From Vermamoeba vermiformis (lineage: Eukaryota): a stretch of 64,000 bases of DNA. Of this stretch, positions 90-13,917 are shown piece after piece. The notes beneath the pieces were generated by a model, which saw only the letters and a list, made by a program, of their open reading frames with translations, was not told the origin of the DNA and ran no database searches. Where the stretch lies: positions 124,001 to 188,000 of the forward strand of contig JBEWZL010000006.1 of assembly GCA_045837725.1 (NCBI GenBank), written 5' to 3'. How positions within the stretch are numbered: position 1 is the stretch's first letter; each line of letters begins with the position of its first letter. The position numbers and the translations under genes were made by a program.

Positions 90-1752
90 CTAGTTCTGCA
101 TGTCCAAGTTGATTTCTAACGAGACATAAGGGTAGAACTTTTCGTTGGTGACCAAACCAGAAGGAGCTTGAGAATCCAAGTCTTCATCATTAGCCAAATT
201 GCGACCCATGTGCTTGTACATTTCATTCAGAGTGTCACGCAACTTCTTCTCTTGCCTCTTCTTGGGCTATAATAGTATAATACGTATGAGACCGACGGGT
301 ACTATTAATTCATATAGGTCTCAAGCCTTACCAGAATCAACATAGCTTGGAAATCTGCGGGCAAACCGAAGCGCAAAACTGATTCAACGAAGCAGCGAAT
401 GCACTTCAAATGAATCCAAGCAATAAATGCTTCAGCAAAGTTTGTCTTACACCATCGAGAAAGATTTCGCTAAACAAATAACATTAATATCCCTCTTCAT
501 GTAATGTTGTCAATGTGACAGCAATGAGATCCGTTATTGTTATGTAGTAATATTTGAAACACGTACCTTTTGTCTATCTCGCTCGGTGATTTGTTTTTTC
601 TTGGCCTCAGGATCGATAATGACAGCAGGCTCATATTTACGAACAATAAACTTGTGTTCACGAGCAGCGTTCTTAAAATCATCGACAGCGCGCTTGAACA
701 GAACAACGCACCACAATCCGTTTTCACCGTCTTCGAATACTTTGCGACTTGAACGAGGCACGACATATTGAGCCAATGTCTCGTATTTTGTGAGCCATGT
801 TTGTTCTTCGGATCTGGCGGCAAATTTAAACAATAAATATCATTGCAAATTATCAAAATATTATTTCGGCATTATTTACCTGTTGACTACAACGAAGAGA
901 GTTGTAAGATTTGTGCTTTCAGTAACGTCTTCTTTTTTAACAATATTTCCAAGATCTCGGGCAATAAGTGAGCCACTACATTTTAAAAAATTAGAAAAAT
1001 GCTCAAGAGCAGCAAAGTAAATATTATGATACGAGGGAATTAATATTTTGACGAGATCCGTTAATTAACGTAAACGTACCTTTCTTTTTTCTCTTGAGCG
1101 TGAATAGATTGATTCAAAGTGTTGTATTCCACGGCTTTTTGTCTCAATTCTTCGTCCAATTTGCCCACGTTCTAATAAACCATTTAGCAAATATTTATCG
1201 GATATTTTTTGAAAAGTCGACTAACTTCTTTCTCGCGTCAATTCCAACGGATGTATCAATTTGTACAGCTCTAAAAATTGTATAAATGCGTCCTATACTT
1301 ACGGCATGAACTAAATCAACGAGCTCACGCAGGGATTTTCGTCTCGGGAAGCGAGCATCCTCCCACTTGAATCGTGTCAAGTATTGATCGGCGTTGGCTG
1401 TTTAAAACAATTCGGAATGATAATTAACATCAGGAAAATTATAATTATTATAGCAGAGCAACTTACTGTCAATAATAGGGATATTAAACTTCTCTGGCTT
1501 TTTTTCCATTAAATCAAATAATTGTTTGGCGATCTTTCGAGTCATATTTTCAACGTACATATCGATTTTGTTTAATTCATCGCTCAATTCCATCAATGAG
1601 TTCAATGTGCCGACTTTGAGGTCTGGTATTTCAAATTTGTTATTTTCCTGCGATAGATCCTTGAACTGCATTGTTTGTCTGTTCAGGTCACCGAACACAT
1701 CCGGAGATGTCTTCTTAGGCACTGATATGAGCCAGAATAATTTATCCTCCAT
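90..1752 (-). CDS. ATP6V1C: V-type ATPase V1 subunit C (multi-exon)
   Basis: Exons translate to [67 protein letters not shown] and end in [15 protein letters not shown]. These are the conserved Vma5/ATP6V1C motifs. Confidence 0.95.
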
Positions 1753-1996
1753 ACTTTTGTTGCTTGAAAGAGCTCTACAACAACAATATCGTCGTTGGCG
1801 TATTTCCGTTTACTTTTCAGATGGATTTGCCCGTCAAAATTTTCTCGTTACAAATTTGACGACCAAATTTTGCTCGGGATCGAGACCGTTCTCTGAAAAA
1901 ATTTTGCTTTGCCGGACATTCTTATAAGTTATTTAGTTGTAAAGGTGACCACGACTGGTTTTTATCATTATACAAGAACTCGATCAGGAGATCTAG

Positions 1997-4214
1997 ATGT
2001 CCCGCCGAAACAGTATGTGACGATTAATTATGCTTTATTATATTATATGCTATTATTTTTTATGCGTTATTAACGATTGATAGGAAACAATCGTAATAGA
2101 GACGAGCCCGAGCATCCGAACGGTAATGAACCGGAAATACAAAACGGTCACAACGAAGAGGAGAATGGCTCCGATAACGATGGAGAAGAAGTTGTATCAG
2201 TATTAGACCAAATATTTGATGATTTAAATGAAAAGAGGTAAGCGGATCGTCACTTTCCTAAAAAGATCCCTCATAATTTTTTTTAATTCTTTGGTTTTCG
2301 CAAAATTACGTGATCGTTAGGCATCCTCATAACATTGTGTATTAAATAATATTGTGTAATATTATAATAATTCCTATTCAATAGTTGTGAATTTGATCTA
2401 ACCCGATCCATTTCTCTAGGTCTTCAACTCGCGAAGCAGCGCTTGAAAAGTTATGTAATCAATTACGATTGCATTATAATTTTGATATGGTTCACGAAAG
2501 GTATGTTCGGTGCTATTTTTCGGAGCTGCAGGATCCCCCACGAAAATTATTTAATTTTTCAGAAGCAACCTTTATGCGACATACATTCTATTCAGCTACA
2601 TTTATTGTACATAATCAAATTATTCGCTAGATCACTGTCTTTACGGAAAAGGTTCCGATTAAATTTTATCGATCACGAAATCTGACAATTCCTTTGCTCT
2701 ACAGACGCGAGACTATCGTCGAGGCTATTAAACGAGCACTCAAGCGAGGTGGATCACATGAACAAGTTCTTGGCTCCAAACTCAGCTCTTTAATCACGAT
2801 CACGATCGGAGCTGGTTGCTATGTAAGCAAAATTTTCATTTAGGCCTCTTGTATTACGAAATTAATAGGCCATAATATACCCTTGCAATATTAAAATAGC
2901 TGGATCTGACTTCGTTACCATACTAGGACATTTACTTGGATTTGCTCGACTTTTTCAGGACAATTATTTTGCAAAGCAATGATGCTCACGCCACAGCTTC
3001 CGTAAGTAAAATATACTATTGACCTAACACATACTCTATCATATGCTTATGCTGCCATAAATGCTCATCGTCCATTATTTTTTTCTTCTTCGATTGTTGA
3101 CCTTATTTTATTAGGCTATTGAAGCTCTTGCATTGAACTGCTTTATCGCCGGTGAAACTGAAGCGGATACTCAACAAGCCATGCAATTAATCGCATCAAT
3201 CTTCGATAAGACTCGTTCTCAGACTCCAGTTGAAGTTTTAGAAGCCGCTTTGAACTCTTGGGGCTTACTCGCTACTGTTGCTCCTATTGAATATTTGGTC
3301 AGAAAAGAACTTAATACGTAAGTTAATCCATACAATTGGTTAGGAGTAATTTTCTTTCGAGTTTTACTAATCTTCGGTCAATGTTTAGTCAAGTCAGATA
3401 CTTCGTCAAGTTATTGGACGACAGTGATGTAGATATTAGAGTATCAGCCGGACAAAATATTGCATTAGTGACTAGCCTCTTAAACTCCAACTTGATCGAT
3501 CAACAAGACAACGATCTGAGAAAACAATTGAAGCATTATACTGACGTTGAAAAATTGCTCGATAGATTGTATGATATTCGACATGATAGACGAAAGAGCG
3601 TATTCTCGCAAAAAGAAAAGAAATCAATGCGACAGGATCTGAAGGAAGTCGTTGAAATTATTGAGGTAAGGATCTCGCATTACTTCGCGACCTTTAACTT
3701 GAAGATATTGAATTAGGACATTATATTAATGGTATTTTATGATTAGACTGGCAAAGAACCCACAGAAGTAATCACAATTAAGCACCAGAAGTTTACTTTC
3801 GAAACATGGCCTACTTTGCGACAATTGGATTTCTTTAGAGACGTGTTGGCTCAAGGAACACACATTCACTTTGAAGTAAGTATTTGCCGCCTAAAATGAA
3901 CTTCTTTTTGCCAGTTACCGATCGGATGCGCTTTCCAGTACGCGGACCCGAAAAAATCGTTTTACTGCAACGTTTTTGCGCTTGAAATGAGAACTGTACT
4001 AATTATATGCATTTAGCAAAACGAGCTCCTATCAGACATCTTTGGCTTGGATATCGAGCACGACCTTGTGAATAAGAACTTGAGTGCGATTGAGAAGCGC
4101 ATGACTTTCTCGCCGAACTCGCCTTATGCCAAGGACAGGACACAGAACTTAATGAAGGACCGCGCCGTAAAGAGCGCGAAGACTGGCTCGATCATGTACG
4201 AAGATGACTTCTAA
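1997..4214 (+). CDS. IFRD1: Interferon-related developmental regulator (IFRD family), multi-exon
   Basis: Spliced exons give LNEKRSSTREAAL, AALNSWGLLAT, LLDDSDVDIRVSAGQNIAL, EKKSMRQDLKEV and FETWPTLRQLDFFRDVLAQGTHIHFEQNELLSDIFG, matching IFRD/IFRD_C. Confidence 0.85.
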
Positions 4215-4667
4215 GCCCAAGCAATTGATCTGAGCTCCATAGAGCTTTTGAACCAAAAATTTTGTTTATTACTATCTTTTGCGAATAAAATATTATTTAT
4301 TTGAAAACATGCTTGGATCAGAGTTTGTTTCTGCCTATGTACGGTTAACATCTGAAACTTCCCTTACTAAAATCCTTCGTTCGACCAGCAATTGCAAGAC
4401 CCCAGCCGTAGCCATATGTTCACTACAAATTGGTTAAGTAGAGTCTACTAAAGGTAGTAACAGTTCGGAATTTTCAGCACGTGGCAGCGAACAAGCAGAA
4501 AGAAAATTTTCGTTCTGATTTTGTTCAAAATAATTGTGTAAAGTAACGAGCATATCACTGTTCTGTATTATATAAGTTATTTGCTCCTTTGTATTGTTAG
4601 TTCAATCACTCGGCTCACTCCGATCTGGACATCTGTTTGCAAGCATTAATTAATCAAACAGAATAGC

Positions 4668-8777: not shown

Positions 8778-9968
<1,191 letters not shown>

Positions 9969-11326: not shown

Positions 11327-11561
11327 ACATGTTATACCAGCGTGGCTTCGAAACAAGATTGATCAAATTGGATCTGCTTGTTGATACGTTCAACATTTAA
11401 TCGTACGAATAAATATTTATTTCGTGATAATACCTTACTGAAACAACGCAAGGACTCAAGAGATCTGCCGCTGGTTATTTTCGACATTTTTTAAAAAAGG
11501 ACGGAAGATTACCACAACCACAACGACATAATTTACTTTATAAGGCACGCTAATTGCTAAT

Positions 11562-13758
11562 ATGAGACGAAATGTTGGTATTGCCGGGTTACAAAATAGG
11601 CAACAACAGGCTGTAAGTGAAAGCTCTGATAGAAGGGCTTCTTCTACGAATACAATAATAATAATAGTGGAATTTATTTAATATTAATTACACGTGTATT
11701 ATTAGTGTTGACGCAATACGCGTCGGCACGAATTATAATTCAATTTCGAATTTTCTTATTTATTTAATTTAGACAAAATTCAAAGAGACCGGCAATGAAA
11801 TAGCCAAGGTACAATCACAACAAGTAAGTAATAAATTATTATTATAATAATTATTCGCAAATTAACTCGTGACAGGTCCAAGAACAGATGGCGAAGTTCA
11901 AGGAGAAGCTGGAGCAGTTCGCTTTGAAGCATAAGAAGGATATTAATAAGAACCCTCAGCTACGACAGGAATTTAATCAAATGTGCGCGAAGATTGGAGT
12001 CGATCCGTTAGCAAGTAAGAAGCCGATCAAGACCCGATCTAGACCCCATATTAATTTTATTGTCTTTAGCTCACAAGGGTTTCTGGGCGCAGCTTCTTGG
12101 AGTAGGCGATTTCTACTACGAGTTGGCTATACAGATAGTTGATATCAGTCTCAAGACACGAGAGATTAATGGCGGCTTGATCTCGATCCGCGAAGTTTTG
12201 CAAAGACTGAATAAGCTACGAGGAGCAAGTGCGCAACAAATCAGCAAGTAAGTATTATTTGCATTGCCGATGCCAGTACGATTGATATCTAACTGATGTT
12301 AGGGATGATATTGAACGAGCTGTTCAGAAGCTCAAAGTACTCGGCGAAGGGTTCAAGATTCTTCACATTGGCGCGAAGAGAATGCTTCAAACAGTGCCTG
12401 GCGAGCTCAACAACGATCAAACGAGCATCATCTTGTTAGCCCAAGTAAGTTTTGACACGTACCGAAGTCACCTCGTGGACTTTTTTCATCTACATTGCGC
12501 AATAGTAATCGTTCTATTGTTAGAACAAAGGTTACGTCACCATTGCAGAGGTCACTAAAGAACTTGTCTGGGACGCAGCACGTGTCGAATATGCCTTGGT
12601 AAGTCTGTTTTAAAGTCAATTCGATTTGCTCGAGGCAAGGCTGTCCGAAAATTCCCCAGTGAATTGTTTGAAAAGCCAATGAGGTTATTTTGAGGTGATA
12701 TTCTTGCAACGTGCCTGGGTTTGGGGCGACTCGAATTGGAAGCGCCTTAGCCGATCAACAAGGTTTCGTGGTGTAGTTGGTTATCACGTCTGCCTCACAC
12801 GCAGTAGGTCCCCGGTTCGAGTCCGGGCGGAACCATTTCTTTTTTTGCATTGCTCTTTGCCACGGTGTTTCTGCCCAGCGTTCTGTTTGGCACCTTGGTT
12901 GGTTTGAAGGTTGCAACCAAATTTCACTTTTGGTCGTGCTCGACTTGCTGGACTTTTTTGGGCACAAAGCGTAGGAAATTAGGCAAAAGGGTTACGACTG
13001 CAGCCGCGAATACCGGTTTGTCTGCGTGTTTGCTAGCTTGGGGGTCTGTCTTTTCGCCCACTCCAATGACAAACGCCTTAAACCCTCAACAACGGCTCCG
13101 TAGTATAATGGCTATTATATTGGATTCTGACTCCAAGGATCCCGGTTCAATTCCGGGCGGGGCCTCTCTTTTTTGCCTGTGTCGGTGCCTTTTGCGCTTC
13201 TCTGGTTCTTGTTTATCAATGGTCATTCTTTCCGCGGGTCAGGCTTCTGCTCGGGAAGAGTTGAGCTTCTTGTGGATTAACTCTTTGGCTTACGCAGCTT
13301 TGCGAAGTCCTAGGATTTACTGAGTGCGAAACGACCTTTGCAAGTTGTTGCGGCAAGTAGTGACCCGAACACGAAATTGCTTTTCGTCTCGGGCACGACC
13401 ACACTAACAAGAATGCACCGCTTCCCGTCCGATCAGCGAAGTTAAGCTTGTTCAGGCCTTCTTAGTACTGGGGTAGGAGACTACCTGGGAATCGGAGGTG
13501 TTGTGCTCTTTTTGCTTTTTTGTATGATCTCGTATTGTGCCCTCGTAGTCTTCCCTCGGTTGCTTTTTCCACGTTCGCAGCGGATCGGATCTGAACTTTT
13601 TAGTTTGATCTGGTATGGCGGTCACTAATTTATTATTGTCACAGCACACAATGATGCAAGAAGGCATGGTCTGGCTCGACACGCAAGCAGGTGGCTCTGA
13701 AAGTTTATTTTGGTTCCCGTCGTTGTACAGCCAGATCAACAAGGTCGAAATGAATTAA
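11562..13758 (+). CDS. SNF8: ESCRT-II subunit SNF8/Vps22/EAP30; last intron 12599-13644 hosts Pol III genes
   Basis: Contains MRRNVGIAG, FNQMCAKIGVDPLA, KGFWAQLLGVGDFYYEL and DDIERAVQKLKVLG. The exon ending ...VEYAL at 12598 joins in phase to HTMMQEGMVWLD...FWFPSL at 13645-13758. Confidence 0.95.
12762..12835 (+). tRNA. tRNA-Val(CAC)
   Basis: Acceptor stem GGTTTCG/CGGAACC plus discriminator A. Anticodon loop CT-CAC-AC, T-loop GGTTCGAGTCC, followed by an oligo-T run. Confidence 0.96.
13094..13165 (+). tRNA. tRNA-Gln(CTG)
   Basis: Acceptor stem GGCTCCG/CGGGGCC plus discriminator T. Anticodon stem TTGGA/TCCAA with loop TT-CTG-AC, T-loop GGTTCAATTCC, followed by an oligo-T run. Confidence 0.96.
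13391..13509 (+). rRNA. 5S rRNA
   Basis: About 119 nt with terminal helix GGGCACGAC/GTTGTGCTC. Contains the eukaryotic 5S hallmarks CCCGTCCGATC, GAAGTTAAGC (A box), TTAGTACT and GAC..CCTGGGAA, then a T-run terminator. Confidence 0.96.
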
Positions 13759-13917
13759 CGATGCACTCGAGCTTACGACACGCACCACCTTAAGAACGTT
13801 TTGCCCAACCTTAGTATGGCTACATTCAACCTCGTACAACGAATCAACTGTAGCAAAGTGGATTCGATCCAAAACGAGATCCATTTTTTCGCAGTTTTAA
13901 TGTGTCGAATAATCTCG

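Follow-up and report, generated by a model that had tools for sequence, protein, structure and literature searches.

The question raised by this locus is how three genes of the kind transcribed by RNA polymerase (Pol) III, encoding a tRNA-Val, a tRNA-Gln and a 5S rRNA, come to lie within a Pol II gene of Vermamoeba vermiformis, SNF8/Vps22, in the last of its introns, and, more specifically, whether they constitute a mobile or regulatory module or, instead, are independent units that happen to be nested there. The locus is examined here within a stretch of 64,000 nucleotides (the window), with the help of three RNA-seq runs (X21, X22 and X23), all bearing the same species label, and of one DNA run (X1).

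The host gene encodes a subunit of ESCRT-II. Its gene model comprises 249 amino acids in seven exons, which are joined in frame by introns that all have GT..AG borders. The exons and the last intron are as follows:

11562..11612, + strand: SNF8 exon 1, with its ATG at 11562 (in-frame model; the N-terminus aligns with homologues)
11773..11823, + strand: SNF8 exon 2 (in-frame model; an RNA joint follows the exon)
11876..12014, + strand: SNF8 exon 3 (Pfam EAP30, PF04157, E=1.3e-15, 58.1 bits, profile 29-71)
12070..12247, + strand: SNF8 exon 4 (Pfam EAP30, E=2.7e-14, 53.8 bits, profile 83-131)
12303..12444, + strand: SNF8 exon 5 (Pfam EAP30, E=0.0013, 19 bits, profile 133-168; alone, under the family cut-off)
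12524..12598, + strand: SNF8 exon 6, ending ...VEYAL (gene model and homologue alignment)
12599..13644, + strand: SNF8 last intron, 1046 nt, phase 0, GT..AG, GC 0.48 (RNA-seq joint)
13645..13758, + strand: SNF8 exon 7, starting HTMMQEGMVWLD, with the stop codon TAA at 13756-13758 (matches solved SNF8 C-termini)

The exons were searched singly against Pfam, where the EAP30 cut-off is 26.8 bits. Exons 3 and 4 each exceed this cut-off alone and the profile positions are collinear over exons 3-5, which establishes the EAP30 domain; exons 6 and 7, searched in the same way, have no Pfam match. Exon 7 matches residues 192-222 of one solved SNF8 chain (3cuq_A, E=0.0014) as well as two others (2zme_A and 1u5t_A). 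The best named SNF8 match is from Arcella (65% over exon 4), and exon 4 is 100% identical to a public gene model, P0001, whose source name is 'ESCRT-II complex subunit VPS22'. (As a separate observation, P0001 appears to continue into the last SNF8 intron and to be without the final exon.) Overall, the DNA has the character of an intron-rich microbial eukaryote with a GC content of about 40%; its actin, at 94-95% identity to those of animals and chytrids, is not discriminating as to taxon, and for a kinesin-5 tail a single relative, 90% identical, was found. RNA-seq reads join exon 4 to exon 5 (12247 to 12303) in all three runs, exon 5 to exon 6 (12444 to 12524) in X21 and X23, and exon 2 to exon 3 in X22 and X23 (11819 to 11872, skipping 52 nt, with a placement that is ambiguous by three letters). 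The joint between exons 1 and 2 is absent among the RNA-seq joints listed, and the exact fit of the reads starts at 11773.

The last intron differs markedly from the other five SNF8 introns, which are 52-160 nt long and have a GC content of 0.21-0.39. It begins with gtaagt at 12599, and carries ctaat at 13625-13629 and cag at 13642-13644. Its removal is documented by an RNA-seq joint from 12597/8 to 13644/5, which skips 1046 nt bordered by GT..AG and which is present in two reads of X21 and three of X23 (X22, none), that is, in five reads altogether. The predicted protein aligns gap-free with six full-length SNF8 homologues over the 12598/13645 junction; taken together, this alignment, the exon 7 matches and the five reads show that the splice restores the winged-helix C-terminal end. 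In exons, the strain used for RNA-seq is about 5-10% divergent from the window (159 of 250 X21 reads are only 90-95% alike), so that these reads prove the exon 6-7 joint rather than the presence of the trio inside that strain's own intron. No RNA reads fall on the gene-free parts of the intron (bins 12634-12714, 12877-13038, 13201-13281 and 13525-13605) in any of the three RNA runs.

All three Pol III genes (12762-13521) lie in their entirety between a donor and an acceptor at which this Pol II gene is spliced. These and their flanking elements are listed below; the motifs upstream of the tRNAs were read directly from the sequence, and Rfam was scanned at its gathering thresholds (38 bits for 5S, RF00001, and 29 bits for tRNA, RF00005):

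12743..12761, + strand: upstream motif of tRNA-Val, CGCCTTA (12743-12749) ... TCAACAA (12755-12761)
12762..12835, + strand: tRNA-Val(CAC) (ARAGORN; Rfam tRNA, 62.4 bits against 29)
12840..12846, + strand: T7 run, Pol III terminator of tRNA-Val
13074..13092, + strand: upstream motif of tRNA-Gln, CGCCTTA (13074-13080) ... TCAACAA (13086-13092)
13094..13166, + strand: tRNA-Gln(CTG) (ARAGORN; Rfam tRNA, 60.6 bits against 29)
13169..13174, + strand: T6 run, Pol III terminator of tRNA-Gln
13360..13372, + strand: 5S upstream box GTGACCCGAACAC, at -31 to -19 (RNA reads of other 5S copies)
13391..13509, + strand: 5S rRNA (Rfam RF00001, 104.7 bits against 38; model positions 1-120 of 120, not truncated)
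13509..13521, + strand: T5 (13509-13513) and T6 (13516-13521), Pol III terminator of 5S

The starts of successive genes are 332 and 297 nt apart, and the spacers between genes are 258 and 224 nt long. In the entire 64 kb, ARAGORN predicts exactly two tRNAs and Rfam, at gathering thresholds, gives exactly three matches; a permissive Rfam scan found no further Pol III-type gene either in the intron or elsewhere in the window. In particular, the T-runs in the spacers at 12954-12959, 13564-13568 and 13597-13601 are accompanied neither by a permissive Rfam match nor by RNA reads that would point to a hidden small-RNA gene. (A scan for bacterial-type signals gave no promoter-like and one terminator-like site, no more than in shuffled sequences, and is irrelevant in a eukaryote.) The initial annotation had placed three intact, sense-strand Pol III genes, each followed by a T-run, within the last intron of SNF8/Vps22, and had given that intron's borders and phase, with the C-terminus restored by its removal. 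These assignments hold up well: ARAGORN, Rfam and the T-runs agree on the RNA genes, whose covariance-model scores (the 5S and both tRNAs being above the Rfam thresholds) speak against pseudogenes, while the gene model, the alignment and the five junction reads agree on the host, the predicted 12598/13645 junction being seen in two of the three RNA runs.

The flanks of these genes suggest how each might be transcribed. The words CGCCTTA and TCAACAA precede both tRNAs at the same distance, within 1 nt, and are putative promoter-like elements. Upstream of the 5S gene, RNA reads derived from other 5S copies retain the 13 letters of the box at the same distance, in flanks that are otherwise different; loose read ends before 13389 that carry this box number 19 in X21 and 8 in X23. 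RNA reads over the 5S gene are abundant and, among those listed, show no base difference inside the gene, which leaves them unassignable to a copy of origin. All RNA reads over tRNA-Val and tRNA-Gln differ from the window (e.g., at 12788, 12794, 13121, 13131 and 13135), and therefore originate from other copies or from another strain. Pol III transcription of these very copies is thus something that we infer.

The site of the last intron is probably older than the RNA genes within it. In a distant homologue of SNF8 (L057, about 50% identical), the same position and phase are occupied by a 31-nt GT..AG intron, at a codon boundary where ...DQAL is followed by ILLMQEGFAWVD, which suggests that the site predates the RNA genes and that these would have entered an already existing intron. 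Neither a tRNA gene (ARAGORN, the window serving as positive control) nor a 5S gene (nhmmer) was found at any of 80 metagenomic SNF8 loci; the best of these is only 58% identical, and all the others at most that, so that this result is uninformative regarding close relatives. An exact 59-nt word of the 5S gene had no match in prokaryote genome contigs and none in viral contigs, as is expected for such collections.

The clustering of the three genes is real (three random starts would fall within 629 nt of 64 kb with p of about 2.9e-4, a post hoc value); its meaning is a separate question, and 'incidental' alone does not explain one-strand clustering within 629 nt at a regular spacing of 297-332 nt. 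This tight clustering, single orientation and regular spacing favor the proposal of the initial annotation, namely that the trio is a dispersed or mobile module settling in introns; on this view it would be one copy of a mobile or duplicative Pol III unit that spreads as a block and prefers introns. The spacers, moreover, are unlike the other SNF8 introns in composition (GC 0.46 versus 0.21-0.39, with an AT skew of -0.30 that is attained by 0.55% of 780-nt windows), a difference that fits local evolution equally well as it does a block imported from elsewhere; 5S units are very numerous and occur in differing flanks; and one X1 contig, which joins 13174 to 13352 (skipping 177 nt, its shorter side being only 23 letters), may link the 3' end of tRNA-Gln to the 5S upstream region through a different spacer and could reflect another place where Gln adjoins 5S, or else a shorter allele. 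What argues against a spreading block is that the spacers appear not to recur along with the genes. Word depth in the DNA run (a rough proxy for copy number, which diverged copies would escape) is 204-405 in the four spacers versus a baseline of about 400 in the exons, corresponding to about a single copy, as against roughly 1,400-4,500 in the tRNA bins and 154,000-248,000 in the 5S bins. In X1, multi-copy depth is hence confined to the tRNA bodies and to the 5S unit, together with about 36 nt upstream of the latter, and elsewhere these units occur in unrelated flanks: other copies of tRNA-Val diverge from the window at 12762 and 12845, and those of 5S at 13354/5 and 13510/1, positions that coincide with the borders of the gene or unit. 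Nor does the window contain a second copy of any spacer, a pair of direct or inverted repeats bracketing the cassette as target-site duplications or terminal repeats would (the repeats found are 10-16 nt long and scattered), or a tandem array (TRF reports three trivial arrays of about two copies each, with scores of 31-39); the trio is one unit in 64 kb. Given also the intron position shared with L057, which is probably older than the cassette, a mobile module appears quite improbable. The same low probability is assigned to the bolder notion of a 'Pol III island' that is conserved and under selection as a partner of SNF8, whether as a member of a class of multi-gene, intron-colonising blocks in this lineage or as a roadblock by which the output of an ESCRT-II subunit would be tied to Pol III activity; its traces would be the unusual makeup of the spacers, a spacing that is regular at about 300 nt and the possible second adjacency of Gln and 5S. 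The initial annotation had also named a chimeric assembly as a way in which it could be mistaken; in that case repeated 5S and tRNA sequence would have caused a false join, and the genes would not truly be in SNF8. The three genes are indeed repeats, and among the contigs listed none spans the whole stretch; however, X1 unitigs having 0 differences chain the locus, running from exon 6 into the intron (12537-12739), from the 3' end of tRNA-Val into the first spacer (12819-13072), from the 3' end of tRNA-Gln into the 5S box (13138-13374) and from the 3' end of 5S into exon 7 (13493-13730). Both intron borders are thereby bridged, by a DNA run that may be the window's own source and hence not independent, and an artefact is extremely improbable.

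Two further explanations give the nesting itself a role. In the first of these, which is judged unlikely, the arrangement is selected either because TFIIIC, TFIIIB and Pol III bound to the sense genes would slow or block Pol II and so adjust the output of SNF8 to Pol III activity, or because the SNF8 promoter would license the nested genes, as a host promoter reportedly does for the nested gene sup-7 in C. elegans. One Caenorhabditis study (PMC4999229) lends this some plausibility, in that it describes an effect of a host promoter on an intronic tRNA in C. elegans, lower Pol III occupancy at sense intronic tRNA genes, and tRNA-host pairs that are conserved between species. Within the DNA run, where an alternative X1 contig at 12537-12739 has 12 differences from the window, both haplotypes seem to keep at least the 5' part of the intron and the Gln-5S spacer (depth 405). 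RNA reads, however, cover exon 7 to much the same extent as exons 5-6, with depths of 1-10 reads, and thus no strong block to Pol II is visible; a coupling of Pol III activity or of pre-tRNA cleavage to SNF8 splicing is speculation. In the second explanation, the tRNAs and the 5S rRNA would depend upon Pol II and be released from the SNF8 intron after its excision, much as intronic snoRNAs are. This would account for the sense orientation of all three genes and has a precedent in a tRNA-like RNA, Arabidopsis GUT15 (PMC6152437), but a T-run directly after each gene, upstream elements shared with non-intronic copies, canonical genes with internal promoters that are multi-copy elsewhere, and an SNF8 expression of only a few reads together render it very improbable.

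Comparison with known systems helps to define what is unusual here. In filamentous fungi and other protists, 5S rRNA genes can form dispersed families, with many copies in varied contexts and with a short upstream promoter element of their own; the very high word depth of 5S and its varied flanks fit this pattern. To our knowledge, an intronic site and a tight linkage to two tRNA genes are not standard in such families. An open-access keyword search, which is weak evidence of absence, returned no description of 5S and tRNA genes together in a protein-coding gene's intron. The initial annotation overstated the unprecedentedness of the arrangement: intronic tRNAs are common in nematodes (PMC4999229) and linkage of 5S to tRNA genes is known (PMC2566860, PMC2652664). 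The Caenorhabditis study (PMC4999229) places 44% of the 609 C. elegans tRNA genes in introns, which is no more than chance predicts, and describes Caenorhabditis genes that resemble those seen here in being canonical Pol III genes located wholly within Pol II introns, many in sense orientation, with hosts that are spliced normally. The SNF8 intron differs in holding three genes, one of which encodes 5S rRNA, and in belonging to a microbial eukaryote with compact introns, among which a 1-kb intron is exceptional. In Yarrowia (PMC2566860), a dispersed 5S gene is found immediately 3' of, and in the same orientation as, a tRNA gene, and the two yield a fused co-transcript; here, by contrast, a T6 run after tRNA-Gln, a 224-nt spacer and a conserved upstream box belonging to the 5S gene itself put the SNF8 trio outside of this dicistronic tRNA-5S class. 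The tRNA array units of Entamoeba likewise bring several tRNA genes and 5S close together, but there the unit recurs in tandem, with short tandem repeats separating its genes (PMC2652664), whereas the SNF8 trio is single, intronic, and without an array or notable tandem repeats.

What best accounts for these observations, and is considered likely, is that an old SNF8 intron houses three mutually independent Pol III units rather than a mobile or regulatory module. On this explanation three such units would be arranged head-to-tail inside a pre-existing intron of a single-copy SNF8/Vps22 gene, each with a separate promoter, made up of internal elements and one short element upstream, and with a T-run of its own at the end, and each, for that reason, most likely being transcribed by Pol III alone. 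Pol II would read across the entire block, which the spliceosome would then remove as one 1046-nt intron, an intron that is long only because RNA genes take up about 270 nt of it and their spacers about 780 nt. In other words, this would be a local cluster of Pol III genes whose location within a Pol II gene is fortuitous, a kind of nesting that tRNA genes commonly show in some other eukaryotes, and any effect upon SNF8 would, we infer, be incidental.

The locus is useful for annotation. It would carry greater weight only if the trio proved to be recurrent, to be conserved along with its host gene, or to be able to disturb Pol II. As it stands, it shows that a 5S gene, besides tRNA genes, can sit within a spliced intron and, if this plain reading is right, it provides a compact-genome instance of one polymerase's genes nesting in another's, with three Pol III units accommodated within a single Pol II intron.

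The last intron of the SNF8/Vps22 gene (12599-13644, + strand) harbors a tRNA-Val(CAC) gene, a tRNA-Gln(CTG) gene and a 5S rRNA gene, and is best read as a spliced Pol II intron in which three autonomous Pol III units are nested.

Features of the SNF8/Vps22 locus (window positions):
11562-11612, + strand, SNF8 exon 1
11773-11823, + strand, SNF8 exon 2
11876-12014, + strand, SNF8 exon 3 (Pfam EAP30)
12070-12247, + strand, SNF8 exon 4 (Pfam EAP30)
12303-12444, + strand, SNF8 exon 5 (Pfam EAP30)
12524-12598, + strand, SNF8 exon 6
12762-12835, + strand, tRNA-Val(cac) (ARAGORN; Rfam tRNA)
12840-12846, T7 run directly after tRNA-Val
13094-13166, + strand, tRNA-Gln(ctg) (ARAGORN; Rfam tRNA)
13169-13174, T6 run directly after tRNA-Gln
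13391-13509, + strand, 5S rRNA (Rfam, 104.7 bits)
13509-13521, T5 and T6 runs directly after the 5S gene
13645-13758, + strand, SNF8 exon 7 (C-termini of solved SNF8 chains)

Within the 64-kb window ARAGORN detects exactly two tRNA genes and Rfam, at its curated thresholds, exactly three matches: the 5S rRNA (threshold 38; 120 of 120 model positions, not truncated) and both tRNAs (62.4 and 60.6 bits; threshold 29). Looser Rfam settings revealed no further Pol III-type genes in the intron or the whole window; the remaining sub-threshold rows were just mir-3533 (within an actin ORF), SNORD47 (a fragment) and a bacterial sRNA. The genes start 332 nt (tRNA-Val to tRNA-Gln) and 297 nt (tRNA-Gln to 5S) apart. 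The mir-3533 match (9642-9725; 69.8 bits, under the threshold of 104) most likely reflects that family's resemblance to actin coding sequence, rather than a miRNA gene. The window as a whole is about 40% GC, with short GT..AG introns. Besides the intronless actin ORF itself (8841-9968), whose identity to actins of animals and chytrids is 94-95%, it contains an ORF with an MMM1 domain and a weak Mid2-like match.

The host gene model consists of seven exons encoding 249 aa in frame, with every intron GT..AG. Exons 3, 4 and 5 match EAP30 (PF04157) collinearly (profile positions 29-71, 83-131 and 133-168), and exon 4 shares 100% identity with a protein called 'ESCRT-II complex subunit VPS22' in one source; the best named SNF8 relative is from Arcella. 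For Pfam, exons 6 and 7 are too short; by itself, exon 7 matches the C-terminal ends of SNF8/Vps22 chains with solved structures (3cuq_A, E=0.0014; 2zme_A; 1u5t_A), and the spliced product aligns without gaps to six full-length homologues across ...VEYAL|HTMMQEGMVWLD... The last intron (1046 nt, GC 0.48) stands apart from the other five (52-160 nt, GC 0.21-0.39). A public protein model of a near-identical SNF8 (P0001, 177 aa) ends ...VEYALVSS, which is exon 6 read on into the intron (12596-12607) without exon 7; it seems that the long intron defeats automatic annotation or that the contig ends there.

Three raw-read RNA-seq runs (X21, X22 and X23) and one DNA run (X1), all under the same species label, were compared over 11500-13900. 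The splice joining 12598 to 13645 (skipping 1046 nt, GT..AG) occurs in five RNA reads--two from X21, three from X23 and none from X22--as compared with 8, 3 and 4 reads in the three RNA runs for the control joint 12247->12303, and 7, 0 and 7 for 12444->12524. The exon 1-2 joint is not among the RNA joints listed, and exact read fit begins at 11773. With depths of 1-10 reads, exon 7 is covered about as well as exons 5-6, and gene-free bins of the intron contain no reads from the three RNA runs. The majority of SNF8 reads match the window at only 90-95%, and therefore come from a diverged strain or haplotype; the RNA-seq data thus prove the exon 6-7 joint, and not the content of the intron in that strain. 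The initial annotation, which had described an in-phase splice around three intact, sense-oriented genes with starts about 300-330 nt apart, each followed by a T-run, was correct in every particular.

Every RNA read over the two tRNAs departs from the window at several positions, and these reads therefore stem from other tRNA copies, while 5S reads, for which no difference from the window is listed, cannot be assigned to one source copy among many; the RNA reads thus do not single out the three copies in this intron as transcribed ones. For a tRNA-Val copy whose flank is different, seven X23 reads extend upstream by 71 nt (median), so at least one other tRNA-Val gene of the species lies within a longer transcript. 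At 13113-13174, the three RNA runs have 42, 57 and 11 reads that fit tRNA-Gln over its 3' two-thirds only, with paired anticodon-stem changes (13121 T>C and 13135 A>G); the sequence before them is unrelated, and long T or A runs come after. These may represent a tRNA-Gln-derived element or another transcript with a tRNA-like piece. Some 5S reads run on into 19-25 A directly past the 3' end (13505-13510), which points to 5S RNA with poly(A) tails in the cDNA libraries, perhaps from surveillance tailing.

In the raw DNA reads, the intron is covered by a chain of unitigs that breaks only at the repeated genes; X1 is perhaps the window's own source, so that this chain demonstrates consistency, not independent proof.

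X1 unitigs with 0 differences from the window:
12537-12739, from exon 6 into the start of the intron
12819-13072, from the end of tRNA-Val into spacer 1
13138-13374, from the end of tRNA-Gln into the upstream box of the 5S gene
13493-13730, from the end of the 5S gene into exon 7

A second X1 contig over 12537-12739 (12 differences, 3 indels, about half the depth) shows a second haplotype with the same intron start. X1 holds two versions both of this region and of 13701-13889--one identical to the window, the other 12 differences away and about half or a third as deep--and thus the sample contains two diverged haplotypes, nuclei or strains, to which the RNA-seq strain seems to add a third version. 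In another contig, of depth 182, 13174 is followed directly by 13352 (177 nt skipped), with only 23 letters on its shorter side; it could be an allele whose Gln-5S spacer is shorter, or mark a second place in which tRNA-Gln and 5S are adjacent. Word depth in X1, which is only a rough proxy for copy number, is about 400 over exons, 204-405 over spacers, 1,425-1,570 in tRNA-Gln bins, 2,450-4,489 in tRNA-Val bins and 154,000-248,000 in 5S bins: the gene units are clearly multi-copy and the spacers are not.

Where other copies part from the window delimits the repeated units. Other tRNA-Val copies diverge exactly at 12762 and 12845, and other 5S copies exactly at 13354/5 and 13510/1; the repeated 5S unit therefore begins some 36 nt ahead of the gene. 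It contains GTGACCCGAACAC (13360-13372; -31 to -19 of the 5S gene), which recurs at the same distance in RNA reads from other 5S copies, whose flanks otherwise differ, and is thus a probable upstream promoter element, specific to the lineage, of the dispersed 5S genes. CGCCTTA ... TCAACAA precedes both tRNA genes at distances equal to within 1 nt, and may serve as their upstream element.

Each gene is best read as having its own terminator as well as an internal promoter and a short element upstream, with Pol II transcribing through all three and the intron being spliced out whole. Processing of the RNAs from the SNF8 intron is unlikely, given these terminators and upstream elements common to other copies. 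Co-transcription of tRNA-Gln and 5S, as in Yarrowia, where 48 of the 108 dispersed 5S genes directly follow a tRNA gene on its 3' side in dicistronic units (PMC2566860), is not supported, since here a terminator and a 224-nt spacer part the two genes; nor is an array of the Entamoeba type, whose units contain up to five tRNA genes and in some cases also a 5S gene (PMC2652664), inasmuch as the trio occurs once in the 64-kb window and lacks short tandem repeats. At SNF8, Pol III complexes and Pol II might plausibly interfere with one another to some extent, both on general grounds and from work on C. elegans, in which 44% of 609 tRNA genes are reported to be intronic (not above chance expectation), 56% of these in sense orientation, with sense copies showing lower Pol III occupancy and being affected by host promoters (PMC4999229).

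Neither a mobile nor a regulatory module is supported by the sequence and read data examined. Against the suggestion that a mobile Pol III module had settled here, the cassette is not flanked by any pair of direct or inverted repeats (those found are 10-16 nt and scattered, except for the conserved T-arms of both tRNAs), no tandem array occurs at it, its spacers have no copies elsewhere in the 64-kb window, and the intron site appears old. This last point comes from 80 metagenomic SNF8 loci, 16 of which have more than one HSP; one of these (L057, about 50% identical to the SNF8 model) has an HSP break at residues 212/215, where a 31-nt intron (gtatgt...tttag) lies after ...DQAL and before ILLMQEGFAWVD, at a codon boundary and phase identical to those of the last SNF8 intron of the window. 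L057 also has an intron at the position of window intron 3; both of these L057 introns (1140-1180 and 1580-1610, corresponding to introns 3 and 6) are very short. A shared site is most simply an old one, into which the RNA genes would have come to lie later; parallel intron gain in the two lineages is a possible alternative. Tight clustering (the window's three Pol III genes lie within 629 nt; post hoc p about 2.9e-4), a single strand with regular spacing, and spacers unlike other SNF8 introns (GC 0.46; AT skew -0.30, reached by 0.55% of 780-nt windows) speak for more than chance placement.

Dispersed 5S families also occur in filamentous fungi. A keyword literature search--weak evidence of absence--found no report of a 5S gene together with tRNA genes inside a protein-gene intron. 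The trio is thus an instance of nested intronic Pol III genes with 5S-tRNA linkage, both of kinds already known: a neat arrangement, and an unsurprising one.
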